Source: Myxococcota bacterium
GTDB lineage: Bacteria > Myxococcota > JACRCW01
DNA length: 19,985 nt
Assembly (NCBI GenBank): GCA_040752415.1
Contig: JBFMGU010000199.1
Location: 1 to 19,985, forward strand
Reading direction: 5' to 3'
The translations under genes were made by a program, and so were the position numbers. Position 1 is the stretch's first letter; every line of letters begins with the position of its first letter. This document shows positions 5,428 through 18,368 of the stretch, one piece after another. A model generated the notes under the pieces. It was not told where the DNA came from and made no database searches. It was given only the letters and a program-made list of their open reading frames with translations.

Positions 5428-5868
5428 TTACTTGATGAAATAGCCGGAGACCTTCCACTTCCCGTCCTTGTCGCGCATGGGCGTGATGGTCTCCACCGCC
5501 TGCTTCTTGTTCGCGAACACGGTGTCGAACTGGATGATGACGTACTCACCGTCGGGTCCGCCGGGCACGGAGCGGGTGTACGTGGCGCTCTTGAGCTTGC
5601 GGGAGATCACCTTGCCCAGCGGCTGGCGCACCGCCTTGACGGTCTGCGACCACTGCTCGCGGGTCACCGCCCCCTTGAACAGCGGCGCGGCGTCCTCCCA
5701 GCTCTTCCCGTAGCTGCCCCCGTCGACCTGGGCCAACCACGCCTCCGCCGCCTTTTGGGCCTCCGTCTCGTTGGACGCCGCGGGTTCGGCGGCAACCGCG
5801 GGGGCGGGTTGGAAGCTCGCCATCACGGCCGCGGACAGGAGCAGCGCACCAAGCAGAACGTTCTTCAT
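5428..5868 (-). CDS. Secreted DUF4019-like protein (146 aa)
   Basis: ATG at 5868 follows AGGGAGAAGACG. Signal peptide MKNVLLGALLLSAAVMA. Mature sequence AAEAWLAQVDGGSYGKSW...R.PLG...PGGPDGEYVIIQFDTVF...AVETITPMRDKDGKWKVSGYFIK resembles DUF4019 as I recall it. Confidence 0.8.
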   Translation of the reverse strand: MKNVLLGALLLSAAVMASFQPAPAVAAEPAASNETEAQKAAEAWLAQVDGGSYGKSWEDAAPLFKGAVTREQWSQTVKAVRQPLGKVISRKLKSATYTRSVPGGPDGEYVIIQFDTVFANKKQAVETITPMRDKDGKWKVSGYFIK

Positions 5869-6022
5869 CGTCTTCTCCCTTTGTGTGGTCAGCCTGGTCG
5901 AACCAGAGCACCCGGCGACGCGGTCGCCAAGTCCATCCCTGCGGTCGCTGGGCCACGTCGGTACACCGTGGATGTCGACGAGCGTTGGCGGCTCATGCGG
6001 TGGCGTCCCCCTATGGGCCGAG

Positions 6023-6038
6023 TGGCATGGCGGTGGCA
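6023..6038 (+). promoter_or_regulatory. Possible sigma-54 (-24/-12) promoter for the porin gene
   Basis: TGGCATGGCGGTGGCA keeps the GG-N10-GC spacing of TGGCACG-N4-TTGCW. It would put the transcription start only a few nt before ATG 6052, downstream of the AGGAG at 6041. Confidence 0.3.
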
Positions 6039-6051
6039 TCAGGAGTTGGGC

Positions 6052-7296
6052 ATGCGCACCGTCTCGAAATGCATCTTCCTGTCCTGCCTTCTCGTCGCGC
6101 GCACTGCCTCGGCGCAGGCACCCCAGCCAGTCGCACCCACCACGACGTCGGCGTGGACCGCGGCGCCGACAGCAACCTCCGCTGCGTCGGGACCGAGCAT
6201 GCTCGTCGAGGAGGTCAAGTCCTCACTGCCGGAATGGCTCTCCGTGGTGCAGGTCCACGGCCTCGTCGACGTCTACTACGCGTTCAACGTGAACCGTCCC
6301 GCGGACGGCGCGAACTTCCCGCCGGGAACGGGGAGCACGGCCAAGCGCTTCAACGAGTTCAACCTCAACCTCGCCGCTCTCGACGTCATCGTCGACAAGG
6401 CCCCGGTGGTCGGCCGGCTGACACTCGCGTTCGGCAACGGCATCGAGGTCCTCCACGCCGGGGAGCCGCGCGCGGTGGCCACGGGCCCCGACGTGTTGCG
6501 CAACGTGCTCACCGCTTCGGTGTCGTTTGCGCCGCCCATGGTCCCGGGACTGGTGCTGGTGATGGGCAAGTTCCCCGCGCACGTGGGCTTCGAGGTGATG
6601 GCCAGCAAGGACAACTGGAACTACACGCGCGCCTACCTTGGTGAGTACTCGCCGTATTACCTGGCCGGCGCCAAGGCCACGTACAAGTTCCTCAAGTACT
6701 TCACGTTGTGCGGCATGATCGTGAATGGCTGGCAGAACACCGGCGAGAACAACCTCTGGAAGAGCGTGGGCACGATGGTCGCGTTCAACCACGAGCACGT
6801 GAGCCTGCTGTGGGGCACGCTCGTCGGTCCGGAGCTGCCGGGCACGGTCAACACCATGGTGCCGCAGCTCAACAGCCCGGATACGCGCCTGCGCGTGTTC
6901 AACGACTTCGTCGCGGTGTTGAAGCCGAGCAAGCACCTCAACTTCGCCGCGCAGCTCGACGTGGGCTACCAGCACCCCGCCCGCGACCAACACACCTTCT
7001 GGCACGGCCTGGGCGGCTACGTGCGCATGATGCCCGTGGAGCAGCTCGCCCTGGCTCTGCGCGCCGAGTACTTCCTGGACCCCATGAACGCCGTCACCGG
7101 GTTCGCGCAGAACCTGGTGGAGGCAACGGCCACCGTCGAGCTGAGACCGGCGCCGTTCCTGTCTTTCAAGCTTGAAGGTCGCGCGGACTACTCCACCGCG
7201 CCGGTGTTCAGCGGCTCCGCCGTCGACGCTGCGGGCACGCCGGTGGGTGCCAACAGCCAGACCATGGTCGCCGGCGGCGCGGTGCTGTTTTTCTGA
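6052..7296 (+). CDS. Outer-membrane beta-barrel porin (bbp2/DUF1597, OmpL-like type)
   Basis: AGGAG at 6041-6045, then ATG 6052. Signal peptide ending ASA-Q. Motifs GLVDVYYAFNVNRP, GKFPAHVGFEV..SKDNWNYTR, PYYLAG and VNGWQ, with amphipathic beta-strands and a terminal Phe. Confidence 0.85.
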   Translation: MRTVSKCIFLSCLLVARTASAQAPQPVAPTTTSAWTAAPTATSAASGPSMLVEEVKSSLPEWLSVVQVHGLVDVYYAFNVNRPADGANFPPGTGSTAKRFNEFNLNLAALDVIVDKAPVVGRLTLAFGNGIEVLHAGEPRAVATGPDVLRNVLTASVSFAPPMVPGLVLVMGKFPAHVGFEVMASKDNWNYTRAYLGEYSPYYLAGAKATYKFLKYFTLCGMIVNGWQNTGENNLWKSVGTMVAFNHEHVSLLWGTLVGPELPGTVNTMVPQLNSPDTRLRVFNDFVAVLKPSKHLNFAAQLDVGYQHPARDQHTFWHGLGGYVRMMPVEQLALALRAEYFLDPMNAVTGFAQNLVEATATVELRPAPFLSFKLEGRADYSTAPVFSGSAVDAAGTPVGANSQTMVAGGAVLFF

Positions 7297-7382
7297 ACCG
7301 ACTGTGCAGAGCGCAAGGCATCCTGGGATGTCACCGTCGGGGAGGGTGACGGGGAGCACATCCGCATGTGTCCGTGGGAAAC

Positions 7383-7695
7383 CCGGCAGGGCGGGGCTCT
7401 TTCCCGGCAGGCCCGGGAGGCGTTCCAGCGGGCCTGGGGGGATTACCAGCGCACCCGGCACGCGGCTCCGGCGCGCCCTCCGAGCCTCCCGGCACGGCGG
7501 GGAAGTGGCTCCGGCGCGCCTGGGAAAGCACCCGGCGACTGCCGGACAGTGGCCAGGGTCGGCCGGTGTCACTTCCCGTGCGCGCCGGTACCGGTGCCAG
7601 GGTGTGCCGGGTGGGTTCCGCGGTGAGCCGGGGCTTGGCGGCGGTTGCGCTGGAACAGCTCCGGGCGCGCTGGAGCGCGTTCCCGGGCGCGCCGG
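7383..7695. repeat. Dyad-symmetric, helically phased degenerate repeat array (~21.4-bp period)
   Basis: CCRGC starts at 7383, 7404, 7425, 7446, 7468, 7489, 7511 and 7532. The inverted motif GCYGG ends at 7545, 7566, 7588, 7610, 7631, 7653, 7673 and 7695. Unit consensus is roughly CCRGC-N3-CCYGGG. The central unit is CCGGC-GACT-GCCGG. Confidence 0.8.
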
Positions 7696-7808
7696 TGATC
7701 GTCATCGCGTCGTCGGCGCAAAGATAGCGCTTCCGCACGACGGAGGTGACTTGATATCCGGGCCGCCGAGGGGCGGGACCAACAACAATTCAAGTGGGGA
7801 GGTGTGTC

Positions 7809-8666
7809 GTGGCGGTGGTTTTGACCGACGAGATGAGGGCCGTGCTGGCCGAGCTTCAACCGGCGACCAGCCCGGAGGAGCTGCAAGCACTGATGTCGCG
7901 CCTGGCGGCGCCGTTGCAGAGCTTTGTGCGGGAGGTGATGGAGCCCGATCAGTCCGTCACCGACACGCGGACCGAGCTTCAGGACCTCTACCTGCTGCTC
8001 TACTCGGACCGCGTGGCGCTCAACGCCGTGGGCTTCACGGAAGTGGAACGGCAGCGCCTCCGCGACGCCGTGCGCGCGCTGCTGACGGTCGACGGCGTCT
8101 TCACCAAGCAGATCCGCTTTGGCGAGTGGCGGCCCCGCAGCGTGGAGGAGGTGTGCAAGGCCAGCGTCCCATGGCGGGGCAAGCTGCGCGTCAAGGCGGC
8201 GCAGGCGTTCTTCTTCGACGACGCCAAGGTCGCCACGTACCAGGACCACAACGCCACGGGGACGTTGGAGGAGGAGGAGCTGGACCTGAAGACCCTGGTG
8301 GCGGCGGCCAAGCAGGACGCGGCGGAGCTGGAAGCGGTGGGATTCACGGCGGATGACCTCCGCGAGGGGGAGCGGCTGCTGGCGGAGGCGGAGGGCCGCG
8401 ACATCCTCGGGGTGATCGGGATTCGCACGCAGGCGGACATGAAGCTGACACGGAACAAACTGCTGACGCTGTGCGTGCTCCTGGCGCGACACGCGCGGAC
8501 CGCCGCCGCCAGCGCTCACTGGAACAACCCGGATGCCGCCGCGCGGTTCGAGCGCGTGAGCTTCCGCAACGCCATCCGCCGAATCCGTCCCGCGCGCGCG
8601 ACCAACGGGGCCTCCTCGGGCAACGCGCCCACTCCCACGCCGGTCACCGAGCCCGTGGACGCCTGA
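7809..8666 (+). CDS. Hypothetical, predicted mostly alpha-helical protein (~285 aa) with an internal repeat and a basic C-terminal patch
   Basis: GGGGAGG before GTG 7809 and strong GC3 codon bias. No signal peptide or TM segment. The motif L-x-AVGFT occurs twice, 103 aa apart. The tail is RNAIRRIRPARA followed by low-complexity sequence. Confidence 0.8.
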   Translation: MAVVLTDEMRAVLAELQPATSPEELQALMSRLAAPLQSFVREVMEPDQSVTDTRTELQDLYLLLYSDRVALNAVGFTEVERQRLRDAVRALLTVDGVFTKQIRFGEWRPRSVEEVCKASVPWRGKLRVKAAQAFFFDDAKVATYQDHNATGTLEEEELDLKTLVAAAKQDAAELEAVGFTADDLREGERLLAEAEGRDILGVIGIRTQADMKLTRNKLLTLCVLLARHARTAAASAHWNNPDAAARFERVSFRNAIRRIRPARATNGASSGNAPTPTPVTEPVDA

Positions 8667-8905: not shown

Positions 8906-11017
8906 TCAGGGCAAGCCGAGAATGGAGCTGGGTGTCACCGAGAAACCGCGGCCTGTGCCGGTTGCGCCGCTGCTGTCGTAGCCCCAGGTGGCGACGTTGA
9001 AGTCCGTGTCAATTCCGCCCGGCGCACCCTGTCCGTGACCAAGTTGATCAAAAACAAGATTGGTGGTGACCGGCGTGGGGAAGCTGCGGTTGACGCTGCC
9101 ACCGTAGCCCAGGTTCCCGGTCTCCCCATAGCCCCAGCAGTAGGTGTCATGGGCGAGAGTGGTCATGCAGGTACCCAGTGCGAAGGCACTGAGGTCCAGG
9201 ACCCCGTCGGGAAAGGTCAGGACGGACGCAGGGGTGAGCACGGTGGAATTCGTTGATCCCACACCAAGCTGTCGGTAGGTGTTGCCACCCCAGCATTTGA
9301 TGTTCACGCCGTCGGTGGCGCAGGTGTGATCAAACCCGGCGCTGACGTGGGTGTAGCCGGAGGTGAGGCCGGTGGCGGTTTGGGCGTTCGACCAGTTGAA
9401 GGTGTCGTTGGTGCCAAGCTGGCCGGAGGTGTTGAGGCCCCAGCACTTCACCGCACCGCTCGACGTCCACGCACAGGTATGGGCGTACCCGGCCGACACG
9501 CCCACCGCGCCGGAGATGTTCAGCACACCCGCCAGGAAGGCGTCAGCGGCCAGGACGTCGACGGTGGTGCCGCCGTTGCCCAGCTGGTGGTTGGTGTCCT
9601 GGCCCCAGCACTTGACGTCGCCGGAGCTGAGGACGGCGCACGTGTGGTTCTGACCGCAGGAGATGTCCACCACCCCGGAGCTGAGTCCGTTGGGCTGGAC
9701 CGGAGTTGCGGAGTTGGTTCCCTGGCCATCCCCCAGCTGGCCGTAGATGCCACTGCCCCAGCAGTACATGGCGCCACCGGAAGTCAGAGCACAGGAATGG
9801 CTGACGCCCACGGACACTTTGACCACGTTGCTCAGACCGGAGACCTGGACCGGCACCGCGCGTCGGGCGTCGGTGAAGTTCTGGCCCAGCGCTCCCGCGG
9901 AGTTCTCACCGCTGCAGTAGACGTTGCCCCCCGACGCAAAGCAGCAGTGCTGAGAACCGCAGGAGAGGTCGGCGCCCGCGGCTCCAGCGCTGCCGGCGAC
10001 CGGTGCGGGAACGTAGGAAGAGCCAAAGTACCCATTTCCCATCTGTCCGCCGGAATTCTGGCCCCACGCGCGCACGGAGCTTGCGGTCCGCGCGATGGTG
10101 AAGTCGTAACCGGCGACAATCTCCACCACGTTGCTGAGGCCGGACACCGTCAATGGCACGCCGCTGGATGTCGTCGAGCCGTCGCCGAGCTGCCCGTAGC
10201 CATTGGAGCCAAAGCAGCTGATGTCCCCGTTGGAAAGGATGGCGCACGTATGACTGAAACCGGCGGTGACGTAGGTGGCCGCGCCCACGCCGGTGACCTC
10301 CGCGGGACTGTATTGGGGATTGGTGTTGCCGGCGCCCTGGCCCAGCTGCATGTAGAAGTTGGAACCCCAACAGAACACCTTGCCGCCGTTGGCGGTGTCG
10401 TGCGCGCAGGTGTGACTGCCGCCCGCTGAAATCTGGTCCACCGCCGTCAGAGTTGCCACCGTCACTGGAACGTTGGAATCGGTCCCGGCGCTGTTGCCCA
10501 GCTGTCCGGACCCGCCTTCACCCCAGCAGGCCGCCGTTCCGTCGCTCCGCCTGGCACAGGTGTGGAAGCCCCCAACCGTGACGGTGTCCGCGTTCGTCAG
10601 GGAGCTCACCTGCACCGGAGTGTTCGACGCCGTGAACGTTCCGTTGCCCAGCTGTCCGGAGGTGTTGTCGCCCCAACAGTAGACCACGCCCGTGGAGAGA
10701 CGCGCGCAGCTGTGCTCATAACCGGTCGACACCGCCGTGGCCGTTCCCAGCGCGGTCAGCGCGGTGACTTCCTGTGGGTTGGTCTGGCTGTTGTAGTTGC
10801 CCAGGCCGAGCGCACCGCGGTTTCCAGTGCCCCAGCAATAGACCTTGCCTGACGTCCCCAACGCGCACTGATGGTACAGGCCCTTTGCCACCTGGGTGGC
10901 CGTCTCTGGCATGACAGGCTCAGAAGGCGTTCCGCCCCAGCACTTCACCGCACCGGTGTCGCTGGTCACGCACGTCTGCGTCGCAAGACTGCCCTTGCCC
11001 AGCGCCGCCACGTTGAA
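8906..11017 (-). repeat. 14 RCC1/BLIP-II-like repeats (probably two 7-bladed propellers) in the giant protein
   Basis: Units of about 50 aa with the pattern V..VSAG..HTCA....G.V.CWG.N..GQLG.G.......P..V..L. Confidence 0.85.
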
Positions 11018-14000
11018 CGGATTGGTCCAGGTGTGTTTTGTGTCGAAGGCGGACACCGTTCCAAACGCGTCCGTGGCGCGAACCTGGAAAGAGTGGGACG
11101 CGGCGGTCACGGTGGCGGTGTACGGGGACGTGCACGTCGAGAAACTCGCGCCATCCAGCGAACACTGGAACGTACAGGCCGCCTCACTGCAGACAAAGGA
11201 GATGCTGATGTTGGTGTCGGAGGAGACCTTCGCTGGTGCACTGGTGATGGTGGTGACCGGCGGCGTGGTGTCAATGGTCCAGGAGTACGTCTCCGGCGTG
11301 ACATCGACGTTCCCCGCGCTGTCGGTGCAGTACACCGAGAACGTGTGGAAACCGTCCAGGAGGTAGATGGCTGCCCCAGAGGTGCAGGTGTACGGCGAGC
11401 CTCCATCAATCTGGCAGGTGGCATTGCAGGTCTCCCCGCTCACCGCCCGGAAATTGAAGGTGGAAGACGTGCTGGTGGAGGATGAAGGGGGTGTGACCGT
11501 GATCTGGGTGACCGGCGCAATGGTGTCCTGGGTCCAGGCGCTGGACGTAGGCGTGGCGTCCACGTTGCCGGCAGGATCCACGGCGCGCACTCTCAGGCGA
11601 TTGAACCCCTCCACGGTGTTCCCCTCGGTGATCTGGTACGGCGACGTGCAGGGCGTGTATGGGCCGGTGATGGGGCAATTGTTGTAGCAACACTCAAACG
11701 TGGCCGTGGGGTCGTCTGGCGAGTTGAAGGTGATGGTCGGCGTGGTGTCGTTGGTGGGGTTGGTGGGGCCGCTGACAATGGCGGTGTTGGGAGCCGTCAG
11801 ATCGATCGTCCACGTGTACACGGTTTCCACGCCAGAAAGGCCCACGGCGTCGGTGGCGTAGACGCGGAACGTGTGGGAGCCGGCGGTCTGCCCGCTGTAG
11901 CTCGTCGGGGACGTGCAGCTTGCAAAGGAACCACTGTCCAGGCGACACATGAAGGAACACCCGGATTCGCTGCAGGTGAATTGGAAGGACGGCGCCGTGC
12001 TGTTGGTGGGATTGTTGGGCGCACTGTCGATGGTGACGGTGGGAGCCGTGTAGTCGGTCCGCCACGTGTATGAGGTCGGGCTGCCCTGATTCCCCAGCGT
12101 GTCTGTCGCCCGGACCTGGAAGGTGTGTGTGCCCTCGCTGATGTTGTTGTAGGTCTGGCCGGAGTCGCAGACGGTGAAGCCTCCCGCGTCAAAAGCACAC
12201 TCGTAGCCGCTCACGCCTTCATCGGCGGAGAAGAGGAACACGGCCAGGTTGACGGATGTGGGGTCCTGCGGACCGTCGTTGATCGTGATCACGGGGCCCG
12301 CCGTGTCAATGGTCCAGCTGAATGTGGATTCCGTCGTGTCGGGGTTGCCCGCGGGGTCCACGGCGCGGACATGGAAGACGTGGGATCCATCGCTCAGGCC
12401 CGCCAGTGTGTGGGGCGACGAGCAGGGAGCGAAGGTGGCGGCATCCAGGCGACAATCAAACGTGCTTCCAACCTCGGTGGCGTGGAAAGCGAAGGTCGCG
12501 GCGGTGGCGTTGGTGGGGTGGGCCGGGGTGGAATCCATGACGGTGTCCGGGGGCGTCAGGTCCACCACCCAGCTGTACACGGCCGGTGTTGGATCCACGT
12601 TGCCCACGCTGTCCGTGGCACGCACGCGGAAGTTGTGGGTGGCCTCCGAGAGCCCGCCGTAGAGGCGGGGGTTGCTGCAGGTGAAGAATCCGCCGAAGTC
12701 CAACTCGCACTCAAACGTGCTTCCTCCCTCATTGGAGGTGAAACCAAAGTTGGCGTTGGTGATGTTCGTCGGGTTCCCGGGTTGTTCAATGAGGGTGGTT
12801 TCTGGTGGCGTCAGGTCGATGACCCAGCTGAATGAGGCCATCACCAGGTCTGTGTTCCCCACGGGGTCGGTGGCGCGGACGTCAAACATGTGGCTGCCAG
12901 CGGGCAGCGACGTGAACGTGATGGGGGAAGTGCAGGGGCCAAAGCCCGCGGCATCCAGCTGACACTCAAAGGTGCAGCCCGTCTCCGACGCATCAAAAGT
13001 GAACGTGGCGCTGGTCTGGTTGGTGGGGTCCGCGGGTGTGCCGCTGATGGTGGTGCTGGGGGGAGTCGTATCAATGACCCAGGTGAACGTTGCGTCAGCG
13101 GCATCCGTGTTCCCCGCGGGGTCGGTGGCGCGCACGCGGAACGTGTGAGTGCTCTCGGACAGGCCCGAGAACGCGTGCGGGGACGAGCACGTGGAGAAGC
13201 CACCTCCATCCAATTCGCACTCAAAGGTGCTTCCCGTTTCCGTCGCGGTGAACGTGAAACTCGCGGAGGTCTGGTTGGTGGGGTTGTTGGGCTGCGCGGT
13301 GATGTTGGTGTCCGGCGGAGTGCGGTCCACGGTCCAGGTGAAGCTCGCCGCCGAAGTGTCGGTGTTTCCTGCGGGGTCGGTAGCGCGTACCCGGAACGTA
13401 TGGGTGCTCTCGCCCAGGCCGGTGAAATCGCGCGGGGAAGCGCAAGGTGTGAATCCACCAGCATCCAGCTCGCACTCAAAGCTGCTCCCCGTCTCGGTCG
13501 ACGTGAACGTGAACGTGGCGGAAGTCTGGTTCGTGGGGTTGTTGGGCTGGCCGGTGATGTTGGTGTCTGGTGGTGACTGGTCAATGACCCACGTGTAGCT
13601 GGCGGGGCTGGTGTCGACGTTCCCGGCAGGATCGGTTGCCCGCACTTCAAAGGCATGGCTGGCAGCGCTCAAACCGGAGAAGGTCCGGGGCGACGTGCAG
13701 GCAGAGAACCCGCCGCCGTCCAGCTGGCACTCAAAGGTGCTGCCCGTCTCTGTGGCCGAGAACGAGAAGGATGCGCTGGTGAGGTTGGTGGGGTTGTTGG
13801 GCTGCGCGGTGATGTTGGTGTCGGGCGGCGTTTGATCAATGACCCACGTGAAGGTGGCCGGTGACGCATCGGTGTTTCCGGCGGGGTCGGTGCCGCGCAC
13901 GCTGAAGGTGTGGCTGCCCACGGACAGACCTGAGTAGCTGCGCGGTGCCGTGCACGACGAGAAGCCCGTGCCATCCAGGTCACACTCAAAGCTGCTTCCG

Positions 14001-17000
14001 GTTTCCGTTGCCGAGAAACTGAAGCTGGCGCTGGTCTGGTTGGTGGGGTTGTTGGGTTGCGCAGTGATGCTGGTGTCCGGCGGCGTGCGGTCGACCACCC
14101 ACGTGAAGGTGGCTGCCGATGCATCGGTGTTGCCCGCCGGGTCCGTGGCTCTCACGCTGAACACGTGGGTCGACTCGGACAGCCCGGAGTAGGTGCGGGG
14201 AGAGGTACACGCCGCAAAGCCGCCCCCGTCGAGATCGCACTCAAAGGTGCCGCCCTCCGTCGAGGTGAAGCTGAACGTGGCGGAGGTCTGGTTGGTGGGG
14301 TTGTTGGGTTGTGCGGTGATGCTGGTGTCGGGCGGCGACTGGTCAATGACCCAGGTGAACGTTGCTGCAGAAGCATCGGTGTTCCCGGCGGGGTCGATGG
14401 CGCGGACCTGGAAGGTGTGGCTGGTGGCCGACAATCCCGTGAAGTCGCGCGGAGACGCGCATGTCGTGAAGCCGCCGCCGTCCAGCTGGCACTCAAAGGT
14501 GCTGCCCGTCTCCGTGGCGGAGAACGAGAAGGACGCGCTGCTGAGGTTGGTGGGGTTGTTGGGCTGCGCGGTGATGTTGGTGTCGGGCGGCGTCTGATCA
14601 ATGACCCACGTGAAGGTGGCCGGTGACGCATCGGTGTTCCCGGCGGGGTCGGTGCCACGCACGCTGAAGGTGTGGCTGCCCACGGAGAGACCTGAGTAGC
14701 TGCGCGGTGCCGTGCACGACGAGAAGCCGCCGCCATCCAGGTCACACTCAAAGGTGCTTCCGGTTTCCGTTGCCGAGAAACTGAGGGTGGCGCTGGTCTG
14801 GTTGGTGGGGTTGTTGGGTTGCGCAGTGATGCTGGTGTCCGGCGGTGTGCGGTCGACCACCCACGTGAAGGTGGCTGCCGATGCATCGGTGTTGCCCGCC
14901 GGGTCCGTGGCTCTCACGCTGAACACGTGGGTCGACTCGGACAGCCCGGAATAGGTGCGGGGAGAGGTACACGCCGCAAAGCCGCCGCCGTCGAGATCGC
15001 ACTCAAAGGTGCCGCCCTCCGTCGAGGTGAAGCTGAACGTGGCGGCGGTCTGGTTGGTGGGGTTGTTGGGTTGTGCGGTGATGCTGGTGTCGGGCGGAGT
15101 CTGGTCAATGACCCAGGTGAACGTTGCTGCAGAAGCATCGGTGTTCCCGGCGGGGTCGATGGCGCGGACCTGGAAGGTGTGGCTGCTTGCGGAAAGGCCA
15201 GCAAAGTTCCGCGGAGACGTGCACGCAGTGAACCCCGTTCCGTCCAACTGGCACTCAAAGGTCCCCCCGCCTTCCGTGGCGCTGAAGGTGAAAGACGCAG
15301 TGCTCAGGTTCGTCGGGTTGTTCGGCTGGGCGGTGATGCTGGTGTCCGGCGGGGACTGGTCCACCACCCAGGAGAAGGACGCGGGCGATGGGTCTGGATT
15401 TCCGGCGGGGTCGATGGCGCGGACCTCAAAGGTGTGAGCGCCCTCCGTGACGGTGTAGCTACGCGGCGAAGCGCAGCTGGAGAAGCCACCGTTGTCCAAC
15501 TGGCACTCAAAGGCGCTGCCTGTCTCCGTGCTGGTGAATGTGAAGTTGGCGGCGCCCTGGTTGGTGGGGTTGAGCGGGTGGGTGCTGACGCTGGTGTCAG
15601 GCGGCACGCGGTCAATGTTCCACGTGAACGACGCCGGGGAACCGTCGATGTTGCCGGCGACATCCACGGCGCGCACCAGGAAGTTGTGGCTGCCCCCCGG
15701 CAGTGCGCTGTAGCTGGCGGGTGAGCTGCACGGAGCAAATGCAGCACCGTCCAGAGAGCATTCAAAGGAGGACGTTTCCGACGAGCTGAAGGTGAACGCG
15801 GCGGAATCCAGGTTGGTGGGATCCAGCGGGCCACTTGTGATGCTGGTGTTGGGGGGCGTGCGGTCTATCGTCCAGGTGTGGAGCGCGGCGGTGGCGTCGG
15901 TGTTGGTGGCGGCGTCAGTGGCGCGGACTTCAAAGGTGTGCTCGCCCTCGGAAAGGCCGGAGTAGCTCTTGGGCGACGTGCAGGCGGAGAAGGCCCCAAG
16001 GTCGAGGGAGCACTCGAAGGAGCAGGAACCCTCGTCGCAGGAGAACGTGAAACTGGCCGCGGTGGCGTTGGTGAGGGCGGGCGGGCCGGACGCAATGGAG
16101 GTCTCCGGTCGCGCCGTGTCCACAAACCAGCGGTATTCCGCCGGTGTGGTGTCCGCGTTGCCCACGGAGTCGGTGGCGGCCACGGTGAAGACGTGTTCCC
16201 CGTCGGCAAGGGCGGTGAGGTTTTGGGGGGAGATGCAATCCGCCGGAGCGGCTCCGTCCAGCGAACACCGGAAGGTGCAACCCGACTTGCTGCAGGTGAA
16301 CTCCACGGACACGGAGGTGTGGTTGTCCGGCGTGGGCGGGAACACCGTGATGAGGGTGTCCGGGACCTGCAAGTCCACGTTCCATGCGTGCTGCGCGGGC
16401 GAGGGGTCCGGATTGCCGGCCTCGTCGGTGGCGCGCACCTCGAACAGGTGAGGTCCTTGGCTGAGACCGCTCACCGAGTGGGGCGAGACGCACAGCTCAA
16501 ACGCGCCGCTGTCCAGCCGACACTCCAGCGTGCAGGGAGCCTCATCACAGGTGAATGCAAAGACCGCGGTGTCAAAACCGTTGGGATCCTGCGGAGCGGA
16601 AACGAACGCGACGTTGGGGGCGTCGGTGTCCACGCGCCAGGAATGGTCCGCCAACCCGGAAACATTGCCCGCGGCGTCGGTGGCGCGGACCTGGAACGCG
16701 TGATTGCCGTCCACAACGTTTCCGTAGGCCTGCGGGGAAGTACACGCGGTGAATCCGGCGCCATCCAGGTTGCACTCAAAGCCGCAGGGGTCCTCGGAAC
16801 AGGTGAATGTGAATTGGGCGGTGGAGCTGCCGACGGGATTGGAGGGGCCGCTCGTCACCGTCACACCGGGGCCCACGGTATCCACGGTGAACGTCACCTG
16901 CAGCGGGGAAGGGTCAACGTTGCCCGTCTGGTCCAGCGCGTAGACCTCAAAGACGTGTTGGCCATCCTCCAGGTCACGCAGCGTCTGCGGAGAGGTGCAC

Positions 17001-18235
17001 GGTGCCGGGGCGGCAGCATCCAGCGAGCATTCGAAGGTGCAGCCGGCTTCCGAACAATCAAACTCCACGTTCCACGTTGTCACGTTGGTGGCGGCGGGCG
17101 GACCGCTGATGAGCAAGGTGTCCGGCAACTCCAGATCCACCACCCACACCACCGTCTCAGGGGAGGAACGGTTGCCCACGGCGTCCACCGCCACCACCGT
17201 CACCGTGTGTTCACCCGCGGTCAGTGCCGTCAGCGCCAGCGGTGAAACGCAGGTGGCCTCCGCTCCGCCGTCGACCGTGCAGAGGTAGGTGCAACCCGCC
17301 TCGTCGCAGGTGAACGCCACGGTGTCGTCCTGCTGCCCGGAGGGGTTGGTGGGTGTCTGGGTCAGCGTGACGGAGGGCGGCGACGCGTCCACTTCCCACG
17401 TGAACGAGGCAGGCGAGGGGTCCGCCAGTCCATCCTGCGACACGGCGCGGACGGTGAAGTCGTGAATCCCGCTGGAAAGTGCGTCCACGGTGTGCGGGGA
17501 GCCACAGAGGGTGAAGACCTGGCCGTCCAGTGAGCACTCAAACAGGCACGGGCCCGGTGCGCACGTGAATTCAAACGTCGCGGTCTGCTCTCGCGTGGGG
17601 TCCTGGGGAACCGTTGTCAGTTGGGTGTCCGGCACCACCACTCCGCCCGAGCTGCTGGAGGAGCTGGAGGAGGATGAGCTGGTGGAGCTTGAGGACGACG
17701 AGCTGCTGGAGCTGGCCGACGAAGAAGTCTGGGAGCTGGAGGAGCTGGTCACCTCGGCAGAGCTGCTGGTCCCGTTGGCGCCGGAGGAGGTGCTCCCCGA
17801 CGAGCTGCTGGCAGATGACGTGACGTTGCCCGACGAGGTTCCGGAATTCCCGCTTGAGGAGGTCCCTTGCGCGGAAGACGTGGTGCCCTGGGCGGAAGAA
17901 GTGCTGCTGTCGCTGGCGGAGCCCGTGGACGACGACGTGGAAGAGCCCGATGTCTGACCCGACGAGCTGCTGGTGGCGCTTCCCGAGGACGTGGAGCTTC
18001 CGCCGGTGCTGCTGGACGCGGAGGATGTGCTTGACGCGGAGACCGAGGTTGACGCGGAGCCGCTGGAGGACGACGTCGACGAAGAGGACGAAGACGATAG
18101 GCTGTTGGCGGCATCCCCGGCGTCTGGGACGACTGGGTCCGGAGTTGTTGTGAAACCAGGAGCCAGAAGCTCACAGCCCCACAGGTTGAAAACCGTCCAG
18201 GCAACCACAATGAGACGAAGCCCCGAGCGCGGCAT
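8906..18235 (-). CDS. Giant surface lipoprotein/adhesin (3109 aa): lipobox, Ser-rich linker, 26 Ig-like repeats and a C-terminal RCC1-like double beta-propeller
   Basis: GAGGGAGG before ATG 18235. Signal sequence MPRSGLRLIVVAWTVFNLWG-C. Single uninterrupted ORF. Repeat units were counted by hand. Confidence 0.9.
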   Translation of the reverse strand: MPRSGLRLIVVAWTVFNLWGCELLAPGFTTTPDPVVPDAGDAANSLSSSSSSSTSSSSGSASTSVSASSTSSASSSTGGSSTSSGSATSSSSGQTSGSSTSSSTGSASDSSTSSAQGTTSSAQGTSSSGNSGTSSGNVTSSASSSSGSTSSGANGTSSSAEVTSSSSSQTSSSASSSSSSSSSSTSSSSSSSSSSSGGVVVPDTQLTTVPQDPTREQTATFEFTCAPGPCLFECSLDGQVFTLCGSPHTVDALSSGIHDFTVRAVSQDGLADPSPASFTWEVDASPPSVTLTQTPTNPSGQQDDTVAFTCDEAGCTYLCTVDGGAEATCVSPLALTALTAGEHTVTVVAVDAVGNRSSPETVVWVVDLELPDTLLISGPPAATNVTTWNVEFDCSEAGCTFECSLDAAAPAPCTSPQTLRDLEDGQHVFEVYALDQTGNVDPSPLQVTFTVDTVGPGVTVTSGPSNPVGSSTAQFTFTCSEDPCGFECNLDGAGFTACTSPQAYGNVVDGNHAFQVRATDAAGNVSGLADHSWRVDTDAPNVAFVSAPQDPNGFDTAVFAFTCDEAPCTLECRLDSGAFELCVSPHSVSGLSQGPHLFEVRATDEAGNPDPSPAQHAWNVDLQVPDTLITVFPPTPDNHTSVSVEFTCSKSGCTFRCSLDGAAPADCISPQNLTALADGEHVFTVAATDSVGNADTTPAEYRWFVDTARPETSIASGPPALTNATAASFTFSCDEGSCSFECSLDLGAFSACTSPKSYSGLSEGEHTFEVRATDAATNTDATAALHTWTIDRTPPNTSITSGPLDPTNLDSAAFTFSSSETSSFECSLDGAAFAPCSSPASYSALPGGSHNFLVRAVDVAGNIDGSPASFTWNIDRVPPDTSVSTHPLNPTNQGAANFTFTSTETGSAFECQLDNGGFSSCASPRSYTVTEGAHTFEVRAIDPAGNPDPSPASFSWVVDQSPPDTSITAQPNNPTNLSTASFTFSATEGGGTFECQLDGTGFTACTSPRNFAGLSASSHTFQVRAIDPAGNTDASAATFTWVIDQTPPDTSITAQPNNPTNQTAATFSFTSTEGGTFECDLDGGGFAACTSPRTYSGLSESTHVFSVRATDPAGNTDASAATFTWVVDRTPPDTSITAQPNNPTNQTSATLSFSATETGSTFECDLDGGGFSSCTAPRSYSGLSVGSHTFSVRGTDPAGNTDASPATFTWVIDQTPPDTNITAQPNNPTNLSSASFSFSATETGSTFECQLDGGGFTTCASPRDFTGLSATSHTFQVRAIDPAGNTDASAATFTWVIDQSPPDTSITAQPNNPTNQTSATFSFTSTEGGTFECDLDGGGFAACTSPRTYSGLSESTHVFSVRATDPAGNTDASAATFTWVVDRTPPDTSITAQPNNPTNQTSASFSFSATETGSSFECDLDGTGFSSCTAPRSYSGLSVGSHTFSVRGTDPAGNTDASPATFTWVIDQTPPDTNITAQPNNPTNLTSASFSFSATETGSTFECQLDGGGFSACTSPRTFSGLSAASHAFEVRATDPAGNVDTSPASYTWVIDQSPPDTNITGQPNNPTNQTSATFTFTSTETGSSFECELDAGGFTPCASPRDFTGLGESTHTFRVRATDPAGNTDTSAASFTWTVDRTPPDTNITAQPNNPTNQTSASFTFTATETGSTFECELDGGGFSTCSSPHAFSGLSESTHTFRVRATDPAGNTDAADATFTWVIDTTPPSTTISGTPADPTNQTSATFTFDASETGCTFECQLDAAGFGPCTSPITFTSLPAGSHMFDVRATDPVGNTDLVMASFSWVIDLTPPETTLIEQPGNPTNITNANFGFTSNEGGSTFECELDFGGFFTCSNPRLYGGLSEATHNFRVRATDSVGNVDPTPAVYSWVVDLTPPDTVMDSTPAHPTNATAATFAFHATEVGSTFDCRLDAATFAPCSSPHTLAGLSDGSHVFHVRAVDPAGNPDTTESTFSWTIDTAGPVITINDGPQDPTSVNLAVFLFSADEGVSGYECAFDAGGFTVCDSGQTYNNISEGTHTFQVRATDTLGNQGSPTSYTWRTDYTAPTVTIDSAPNNPTNSTAPSFQFTCSESGCSFMCRLDSGSFASCTSPTSYSGQTAGSHTFRVYATDAVGLSGVETVYTWTIDLTAPNTAIVSGPTNPTNDTTPTITFNSPDDPTATFECCYNNCPITGPYTPCTSPYQITEGNTVEGFNRLRVRAVDPAGNVDATPTSSAWTQDTIAPVTQITVTPPSSSTSTSSTFNFRAVSGETCNATCQIDGGSPYTCTSGAAIYLLDGFHTFSVYCTDSAGNVDVTPETYSWTIDTTPPVTTITSAPAKVSSDTNISISFVCSEAACTFQCSLDGASFSTCTSPYTATVTAASHSFQVRATDAFGTVSAFDTKHTWTNPFNVAALGKGSLATQTCVTSDTGAVKCWGGTPSEPVMPETATQVAKGLYHQCALGTSGKVYCWGTGNRGALGLGNYNSQTNPQEVTALTALGTATAVSTGYEHSCARLSTGVVYCWGDNTSGQLGNGTFTASNTPVQVSSLTNADTVTVGGFHTCARRSDGTAACWGEGGSGQLGNSAGTDSNVPVTVATLTAVDQISAGGSHTCAHDTANGGKVFCWGSNFYMQLGQGAGNTNPQYSPAEVTGVGAATYVTAGFSHTCAILSNGDISCFGSNGYGQLGDGSTTSSGVPLTVSGLSNVVEIVAGYDFTIARTASSVRAWGQNSGGQMGNGYFGSSYVPAPVAGSAGAAGADLSCGSQHCCFASGGNVYCSGENSAGALGQNFTDARRAVPVQVSGLSNVVKVSVGVSHSCALTSGGAMYCWGSGIYGQLGDGQGTNSATPVQPNGLSSGVVDISCGQNHTCAVLSSGDVKCWGQDTNHQLGNGGTTVDVLAADAFLAGVLNISGAVGVSAGYAHTCAWTSSGAVKCWGLNTSGQLGTNDTFNWSNAQTATGLTSGYTHVSAGFDHTCATDGVNIKCWGGNTYRQLGVGSTNSTVLTPASVLTFPDGVLDLSAFALGTCMTTLAHDTYCWGYGETGNLGYGGSVNRSFPTPVTTNLVFDQLGHGQGAPGGIDTDFNVATWGYDSSGATGTGRGFSVTPSSILGLP
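11018..17632 (-). repeat. 26 tandem Cys-containing Ig-like repeats of ~85 aa in the giant protein
   Basis: Consensus PDT.IT..P.NPTN.TSA.F.F...E.G..FEC.LDG..F..C.SP..Y.GL..G.HTF.VRA.D.AGN.D...A.FTW.ID.TP. Confidence 0.9.
13710..15185. repeat. Recent 762-bp (three-domain) tandem duplication inside the adhesin gene
   Basis: 13710-14423 is nearly identical to 14472-15185. Shadow ORFs in the track recur at the same 762-nt offset (13950/14712, 13986/14748). Confidence 0.9.
17648..18103 (-). repeat. Ser/Thr/Gly-rich low-complexity linker (~150 aa)
   Basis: Poly-Ser tracts (SSSSSSSTSSSSGS...SSSSSSSSSSGG) between the lipobox and the first Ig-like repeat. Confidence 0.9.
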
Positions 18236-18368
18236 GCAGCCCTCCCTCAAGTTGGCAGAGCCTAGGCCCAACAACCTCCAAGCTGAAAGGCCGGAGCTCC
18301 CGCGCCCTCAGTTCGCCGGAGTGTGAGCAACGTCAACGCATTCTTTGCCGCGCCATGCCTTCGGTCTT

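Follow-up and report, generated by a model that had tools for sequence, protein, structure and literature searches.

A two-turn-phased, two-arm repeat array upstream of an orphan gene family in Myxococcota

Described phased arrays and the present locus

Plasmid iterons, such as those of F, P1, R6K, RK2 and pPS10, are 17-22-bp units that recur every ~22 bp beside a Rep gene, each with a conserved core and a variable spacer. In the partition centromeres parC of R1, tubC of pBtoxis and sopC of F, phased repeats upstream of their own operon are coated cooperatively by ParR, TubR and SopB, respectively, and double as the operator. In the Bacillus subtilis fork trap, the rtp gene lies beside oppositely oriented terminator repeats that its protein binds. 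Phased arrays beside a reader gene underlie plasmid replication control and segregation, and here we describe an array that is chromosomal, accompanies a protein family with no known domain and occurs in several private versions per genome. It occupies positions 7383-7695 of a 19,985-nt stretch (the window), which is one whole contig (JBFMGU010000199.1) of the 11-Mb, 520-contig assembly GCA_040752415.1 of a Myxococcota bacterium, and it precedes an unannotated gene for a 285-aa protein. A two-arm 21-22-bp array lies directly upstream of the gene in 13 of 14 loci of this protein family, and a 20-21-nt array lies upstream at all seven loci examined in a sister family, with motifs that differ between loci; the first-pass annotation of the window had set this as a test for the flanks of homologous genes, and its outcome is positive. 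The array belongs to a general kind already known, that of phased arrays linked to a gene, and represents a new and conserved case. The same annotation did not recognise it as a described element, and no description of it was found in the literature searched, which did not cover subscription journals.

The module formed by array and gene resembles iterons and their Rep genes in its two-turn phasing, its core and spacer, the variable number of units, the adjoining gene of ~250-300 codons and the private sequences of related modules. However, here a fixed 4-bp centre separates two inverted arms, the array lies on a chromosome with several modules per genome, and 7200-7810 shows no AT-rich unwinding element. 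The protein gives no Rep or winged-helix signal in sequence or fold searches, matching only generic helical folds, although it may have a divergent one, and tblastn returned no relative from 72,556 plasmids, 50,697 phages and IMG/VR. Like parC, tubC and sopC, the array is a phased repeat block directly upstream of a gene, but its period is two helical turns instead of one, its protein is three times the size of a ParR-type binder, and no ParA, ParM or TubZ-type nucleoside triphosphatase (NTPase) gene occurs in the window or at 11 scanned loci; the neighbours of the window module are a porin and a 3122-aa repeat protein. A centromere-, intasome- or spool-like function, as first suggested, finds no support; no partition, recombinase or replication gene accompanies the module.

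We judge it very improbable that the module serves an integrated or formerly mobile element as a replication origin or a partition centromere, its gene encoding an initiator for iterons or a centromere-binding protein. The period, the core with variable spacer, the variable unit number and a gene of ~285 codons do fit plasmid iteron/Rep layouts, transposase genes lie directly upstream at two loci, and the array of a related genome (G001) abuts a truncated channel gene and a gene remnant. However, the GC content of the array is 0.74-0.75 (0.68 just after it), no helicase gene adjoins it either, the protein is absent from the mobile-element collections named above, and Sorangium carries copies on its complete chromosomes, up to five modules in one genome if both families are included.

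According to a report on plasmid RA3, KfrA is an all-alpha-helical protein that oligomerises, autoregulates and acts together with plasmid partition proteins; its helix-turn-helix has been mapped to the N-terminus, and a long coiled coil forms its tail. It binds short repeats at its own promoter, three in one orientation and two in the other, which form five 9-nt units around the -10 box (PMC7783346). The proteins described here are likewise all-helical in models (predicted local distance difference test, pLDDT, 87.9 for the 285-aa protein and 82.9 for the sister family), and the repeats likewise occur in both orientations; however, the present arrays contain 5-20 units of 21-22 bp, and the protein has no Pfam match, including to the KfrA N-terminal family, although a motif resembling a helix-turn-helix can be read in the family alignment. 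Oppositely oriented repeats just upstream of a gene are also a feature shared with the B. subtilis fork trap. A Tus/RTP-type fork trap was rejected because module positions do not fit the terminus: in three Sorangium chromosomes numbered from dnaA, the fractional positions of the modules are 0.487, 0.508 and 0.307 and those of second paralogues 0.05 and 0.65, and a dif-like word lies at 0.38-0.40. This word is an identical, AT-rich, dif-core-like 14-mer found at 0.385, 0.397 and 0.381 from dnaA in So ce56 (L026), So ce1014 (L025) and So ceGT47 (L024), respectively, and is a candidate terminus marker.

Layout and conservation of the array

The array lies in a 512-nt gap between the stop codon of a BBP2-type porin gene (5755-7296) and the unannotated gene, and the locus comprises the following parts.

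7383..7536, + strand: left (distal) arm, 8 units with CCRGC at each start, in steps of 21, 21, 21, 22, 21, 22 and 21 nt; unit consensus in reverse complement ~GG....CCCGGGCG.GCCGG
7532..7545, no strand: central dyad, CCGGC-GACT-GCCGG, inverted anchors with a gap of exactly 4 bp and a midpoint at 7538.5
7541..7695, + strand: right (proximal) arm, 8 units with GCYGG at each end, in steps of 21, 22, 22, 21, 22, 20 and 22 nt
7696..7808, + strand: leader, 113 nt from the last unit to the start codon
7809..8666, + strand: gene for a 285-aa, all-helical, acidic protein with an isoelectric point (pI) of 5.5 and the basic tail motif FRNA(I/L)RR(I/L)RP

On the + strand, CCRGC begins at 7383, 7404, 7425, 7446, 7468, 7489, 7511 and 7532 and is absent from the right arm, while GCYGG begins at 7541, 7562, 7584, 7606, 7627, 7649, 7669 and 7691 and is absent from the left arm; one extra CCRGC, at 7455 in the left arm, falls outside the regular series. 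The mean step is 21.29 nt in the left arm and 21.43 nt in the right arm, with single steps of 20-22 nt. These positions reproduce exactly the 16 half-sites and the dyad reported at first reading, together with every distance from the central unit (21, 43, 64, 86, 107, 128 and 149 bp to the left; 21, 43, 65, 86, 108, 128 and 150 bp to the right). The secondary CCYGGG-like motif said to follow most units is present but weaker, its strict form (CCYGG[GC] or the complement) occurring in 7 of the 14 non-central units, and the suspected ninth pair is marginal, with two mismatches on the left (CCGCA at 7362) and one on the right (GTCGG ending at 7716). The leader contains a box, GCGCAA...GCGCTTCC, resembling one kept after the array in Sorangium loci, and a GGGGAGG ribosome-binding site 6 nt 5' of the start codon; an alternative GTG start exists at 7794, and the start at 7809 agrees with the family alignment.

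Phasing of this kind did not arise in 2000 dinucleotide-preserving shuffles of 7340-7740, a control of the kind called for at the outset: chains of 8 and 8 units were observed, the longest chains in the shuffles were 3 and 4, and no shuffle gave at least 4 in both chains. Elsewhere in the 11-Mb assembly, CCRGC/GCYGG chains of at least six units recur at just two places, both of them coding 21-nt repeats (contigs C510 and C312), and blastn found no second copy of the array region in the host genome. The array is missing from the output of Tandem Repeats Finder because each unit is conserved only in part.

A family locus was counted when 400 nt or more of upstream DNA was available (L019, with 74 nt, was left out). 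The 13 with arrays come from the window, G001, Byssovorax, three Sorangium genomes, which contribute two second paralogues as well, and metagenome-assembled genome (MAG) and metagenome contigs. G001, the only other genus of the window's family, encodes a homologue 54% identical to the 285-aa protein, preceded by 5 CCAGC and 8-9 GCTGG-type units in exact 22-nt steps around the centre CCAGC-GCCT-GCCGG. The same design is shared by Sorangium So ce56, So ce1014 and So ceGT47, Byssovorax and four metagenome contigs, and one MAG array uses GCAGC/GCTGC anchors. Second arrays emerged from a pattern scan in So ce56 and So ceGT47. Second paralogues came from a profile search in So ce56 and So ce1014, and both of these paralogues have arrays of their own. 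In the relatives the centre is CCAGC-N4-GCTGG with units running outward; two inverted anchors exactly 4 bp apart form the centre of all nine curated arrays and, by eye, of those at L016, L022, L027 and L028, the exception being L020, where the innermost anchors are 45 nt apart. The period of 20-22 bp is kept in every related array, which upholds the period of about two turns first read from the window alone. The numbers of units per arm are 8+8 in the window and 5+10, 3+10, 2+11, 7+5, 2+5, 12+5 and 3+10 elsewhere; the arms are often very unequal, such as 2 and 11, and the earlier proposal of a symmetric oligomer that spreads from the centre or wraps 310 bp of DNA is conjectural.

The genes flanking the module vary by locus and include those for a peptidase, an aldehyde dehydrogenase, transposases, an antiporter, a channel, a P-type ATPase, and RCC1 and HNH proteins, and a Pfam scan of 124 flanking open reading frames at 11 loci found no conserved neighbour gene. 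Because the flanking genes are unrelated from locus to locus, array and gene together constitute the conserved unit, and the same architecture with its 4-bp centre accompanies proteins only ~40% identical.

Comparison of the units indicates which of their positions are constrained. The pooled unit is ~..C.(C)TCCCC.GA..TGCTGG, 21-22 bp long, and in 98 unique units from nine arrays the conserved positions are the GCTGG anchor, the T preceding it, a G at -5 and CCC at -9 to -7, with information near zero between and after the boxes. The two boxes, (C)TCCC.G and then (T)GCYGG, are ~9-10 bp apart, and the next unit begins ~12 bp further on. Since the boxes are about one turn apart and the units recur every two turns, this spacing would place all boxes near one face of B-DNA. 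In orthologous Sorangium arrays the boxes are kept and the gene-proximal units are shared individually, with the number of units differing elsewhere in the array. Paralogue arrays carry different units: one array of So ce56 is built from GCTCCCCCGAgcTGCTGG and the other from TACGGCTCCyCGGAnnTGCTGG, and the latter type recurs at the second paralogue of So ce1014, whose array holds nine near-identical units.

A second protein family repeats the arrangement. A 293-aa protein of So ce56, initially a weak profile match, aligns with the family through its C-terminal half (hhalign, 93.3%), and comparison of the two families gave an hhalign probability of 93.6% (E 2e-7, 102 columns, C-terminal half). 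This sister family comprises at least 181 hypothetical proteins, with Sorangium, Minicystis, Polyangium and Polyangiaceae among the named sources. The seven loci with arrays come from three Sorangium genomes; their arrays consist of 3-15 direct units with 0-2 inverted units beside the gene, and have the cores CAGGGAC, TCCTGGAC, CGGACA, ATCTGGAC and ATCCGGAC. The AlphaFold model of the sister family is helical and has no informative fold match.

These comparisons bear on whether the array could be a functionless minisatellite, born by slippage and kept beside the gene by chance. Unit number shifts fast between strains, near-identical runs such as the nine units above exist, and a 43-nt super-period in the window array suggests duplication of two-unit blocks. 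However, the boxes are conserved while the spacers have diverged, architecture and centre persist at the low protein identity given above, and the pairing of array and gene recurs in a remotely related family, so that we give this explanation hardly any credence.

Coding, base pairing and other constraints

The array is free of coding and base-pairing constraints. A coding tandem repeat is ruled out, as first argued, by the mixed 20/21/22-nt steps and by GC content that is flat over the codon positions of the array (0.79/0.76/0.79; 0.71/0.47/0.91 in the gene at 7809-8666). Folded as RNA, 7340-7740 reaches -262 kcal/mol, compared with -221.6 +/- 6.2 kcal/mol for shuffles (z -6.5), and the long predicted hairpin arises because the arms hold inverted copies of one unit. 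In register, left spacers and reverse-complemented right spacers are 0.44 identical (n=7), compared with 0.45 out of register (n=42), so that the lack of complementarity noted earlier for the innermost pair extends to all spacers. In-register pairing of the arms equals out-of-register pairing in seven of seven arrays (the window and six related ones). A long hairpin under selection was therefore rejected, since the fold is strong yet the register test gives no sign of selection for pairing, in line with the original view that this is not a simple long hairpin.

These results also make it improbable that the array works at the RNA level or by extruding a hairpin, whether as a structure at the end of the porin transcript or as the 5' leader of the downstream gene. 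In its favour are the strong fold, the start of the array 87 nt after the porin stop codon, and RNA-library contigs from a strain related to So ce56. The latter (runs X16 and X17) begin ~40 nt ahead of the start codon of the So ce56 homologue and extend to the gene end at word depths of 400-1900, showing neither transcript start nor strand; one contig runs 226 nt further upstream of the leader in sequence unlike So ce56, and the So ce56 array itself has no cover in these contigs. However, beyond the register test, the arms are very unequal in most relatives (2 and 11, or 12 and 5), and the arrays of the sister family are almost pure direct repeats and unable to pair. No covariation exists within units (best column-pair excess complementarity, 0.11 over 98 unique units from nine arrays), Rfam gave no match in the region at E<=1 when the whole window was searched, and across genomes the array follows the downstream gene and not the upstream one.

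Several other candidates were set aside. Small hairpins within units look palindromic by eye (CAGCTC...GAGCTG), and the 98 unique units show no covariation to support them. A promoter within the units or behind them was rejected, as a search gave no match to the sigma-70 consensus and, by eye, the spacing is a misfit to that of sigma-54. A recombination hot-spot word was considered, the anchor resembling the start of the Escherichia coli word, and dropped, as it would leave the fixed period and the second conserved box unexplained. A G-quadruplex or i-motif was likewise rejected, since the Sorangium units have C5/G5 runs where those of the window have CCCGGG, and the feature is not conserved.

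Candidate readers of the array

The reading that we tentatively prefer, at a little under an even chance, is that the array is a double-stranded-DNA docking platform for the product of the adjacent gene, comparable to an iteron array or an operator. Its main basis is fourfold: array and gene are linked in two remotely related families, paralogues have private motifs, the boxes but not the spacers are under selection, and gene and array have decayed jointly. Evidence of such decay comes from G001, where a broken second copy of the family gene (mutated start, internal deletion and frameshift) retains its leader and has no array, and from So ceGT47, where an array without an adjacent family gene has degenerate units. 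Under this docking-platform reading, array and gene would form a self-contained two-part module. The gene product may bind the central head-to-head pair first, and further copies may then add cooperatively along the head-to-tail units of both arms, which would yield a nucleoprotein filament on one side of the helix, immediately before the leader of the gene. Such a filament could control expression of the gene or store the protein at the locus. The data show the architecture, its conservation with the gene family, the paralogue-specific units and the lack of coding or pairing constraints; the identity of the reader, its cooperative binding, nucleation at the centre and the role of the complex are what we infer.

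Relatives of the adjacent protein number 9 among 5.8 billion clusters and 37 representatives among 1.84 billion; those with a named source are hypothetical proteins of Myxococcota or of 'Deltaproteobacteria' MAGs, the named genomes being Sorangium, Byssovorax and Polyangiaceae, and the orphan family has records from Myxococcota only. The AlphaFold model is helical throughout with a disordered tail. By reading of the family alignment, the motif L.AVG(F/Y)(T/G) followed by a helix occurs twice, and from its sequence this element looks helix-turn-helix-like. A search of the ESM Atlas gave nothing informative, and the predicted homodimer scored 0.02.

Several observations weigh against the adjacent protein as reader. 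Searches of Pfam, NCBIfam, PHROGs, PADLOC and PDB sequences all lacked a match to it (none at E<=1 in Pfam or NCBIfam, and no Pfam family at gathering level in 24 members), Foldseek was empty at E<=0.001 for its model, and neither sequence nor fold searches found a recognised DNA-binding domain or fold. The best VIA-align Z scores of the two models, 9.2 and 7.6, were to generic helical bundles, the former covering 104 residues of a helical membrane protein, in a range that the tool calls uninformative for helical bundles. Outside the basic tail the family proteins are acidic, with pI 4.9-5.8 and a core net charge of -4 to -12. Depending on the locus, 88 to 294 nt separate the start codon from the nearest unit, unlike the layout of a fixed operator. 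At L015, a family locus, the nearest 2.5 kb contain no array, and L037, L040 and L042, three of the four weak, distant matches, lack one as well. Plain common descent of neighbours would also yield the linkage of array and gene. Finally, eight more intergenic 21-22-bp arrays with other motifs occur in the host genome with no family gene within 3 kb.

On the other side, a search of the 11-Mb host genome for non-codon chains of at least six units in steps of 20-23 nt returned only nine loci, a base rate that counts in favour of the docking-platform reading. The eight further arrays lie on host contigs at the following positions.

C7: 35070-35330
C152: 1795-1965
C247: 9690-9820
C348: 1770-1900
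C272: 7330-7480
C31: 150-360
C125: 14550-14790
C390: 8122-8234

Their core motifs are TTGCARGCA, GGAGTTGGGTCTC, GGTCGGAGTTGGCC (three loci), CCCGCAA, TGCCTGG, CACCCGGGA and CGCGCACC.ATTCCGG; some are two-armed, and several lie at gene 3' ends, two of them at P-type ATPase genes. In a survey of any exact 5-mer recurring at least six times at non-codon periods of 10-50 nt, only the 21/22-nt period was enriched in this genome, with six loci compared with 0-2 at any other period. The existence of arrays without the gene makes a general reader, or a general repeat-forming process, possible. It may be another factor, such as a general nucleoid protein or a class of regulators with two-turn sites, that reads the array as a protein-binding platform, with the adjacent gene as its regulated target. 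The acidic character of the adjacent protein and its lack of a recognisable DNA-binding fold would also suit this alternative. However, a single shared reader would not predict units that differ between paralogues and between the two families, array and gene are lost or decay together, and no second conserved gene accompanies the module, for which reasons we regard another reader as unlikely.

Should the adjacent protein read the array, as the docking-platform reading holds, its fold would be a new one for sequence-specific DNA binding, and each protein would come paired with its natural site. Such pairs would allow the recognition code to be deduced by comparison and could provide orthogonal parts for myxobacterial genetics. 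A broader and more doubtful proposal, though one we still take seriously, is that of a helical superfamily in Polyangia with an unrecognised DNA-reading fold, each member of which would polymerise on a private, two-turn-phased array beside its own gene, giving up to five self-addressed nucleoprotein modules per genome. The module and the eight further host arrays also suggest that two-turn-phased arrays are an overlooked class of bacterial non-coding element.

Rearrangements and neighbouring features

Several arrays lie next to rearranged DNA. The broken G001 copy of the family gene (L009 reverse complement, 533-1724; G001:C164) has in its leader a 416-nt insertion with long terminal inverted repeats, resembling a miniature inverted-repeat transposable element. 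An intact gene lies upstream of this broken copy, and a remnant of that gene's 3' end persists behind the array that belongs to the intact family copy. At L011 (1900-2240; G001:C141), an MscS-type channel gene without its first transmembrane helices directly adjoins the distal arm, and the gene-less array of So ceGT47 lies 180 nt after a full-length MscS-type gene. At L022 (2400-2520) and L059 (1440-1500), the first ~55-60 codons of a family or sister-family gene are missing and the array runs up to the break, which suggests deletions starting in the array. A large palindrome lies upstream of a sister-family array in So ceGT47 (L058 reverse complement, ~790-1160), with arms of 7-nt simple repeats (CGTCTC-type, complement GACGGAA-type) that enclose a GCGCAC-type repeat.

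In the window itself, a short GC hairpin followed by a T-run at 7267-7296 overlaps the last porin codons; it is terminator-like and lies 87 nt before the array. On the - strand, an open frame of 3122 aa (8906-18274) includes a tandem repeat at 12954-15628, with 10.5 copies of 255 nt (85 aa) that are 73% identical, and probably encodes a giant surface or adhesin-like repeat protein.

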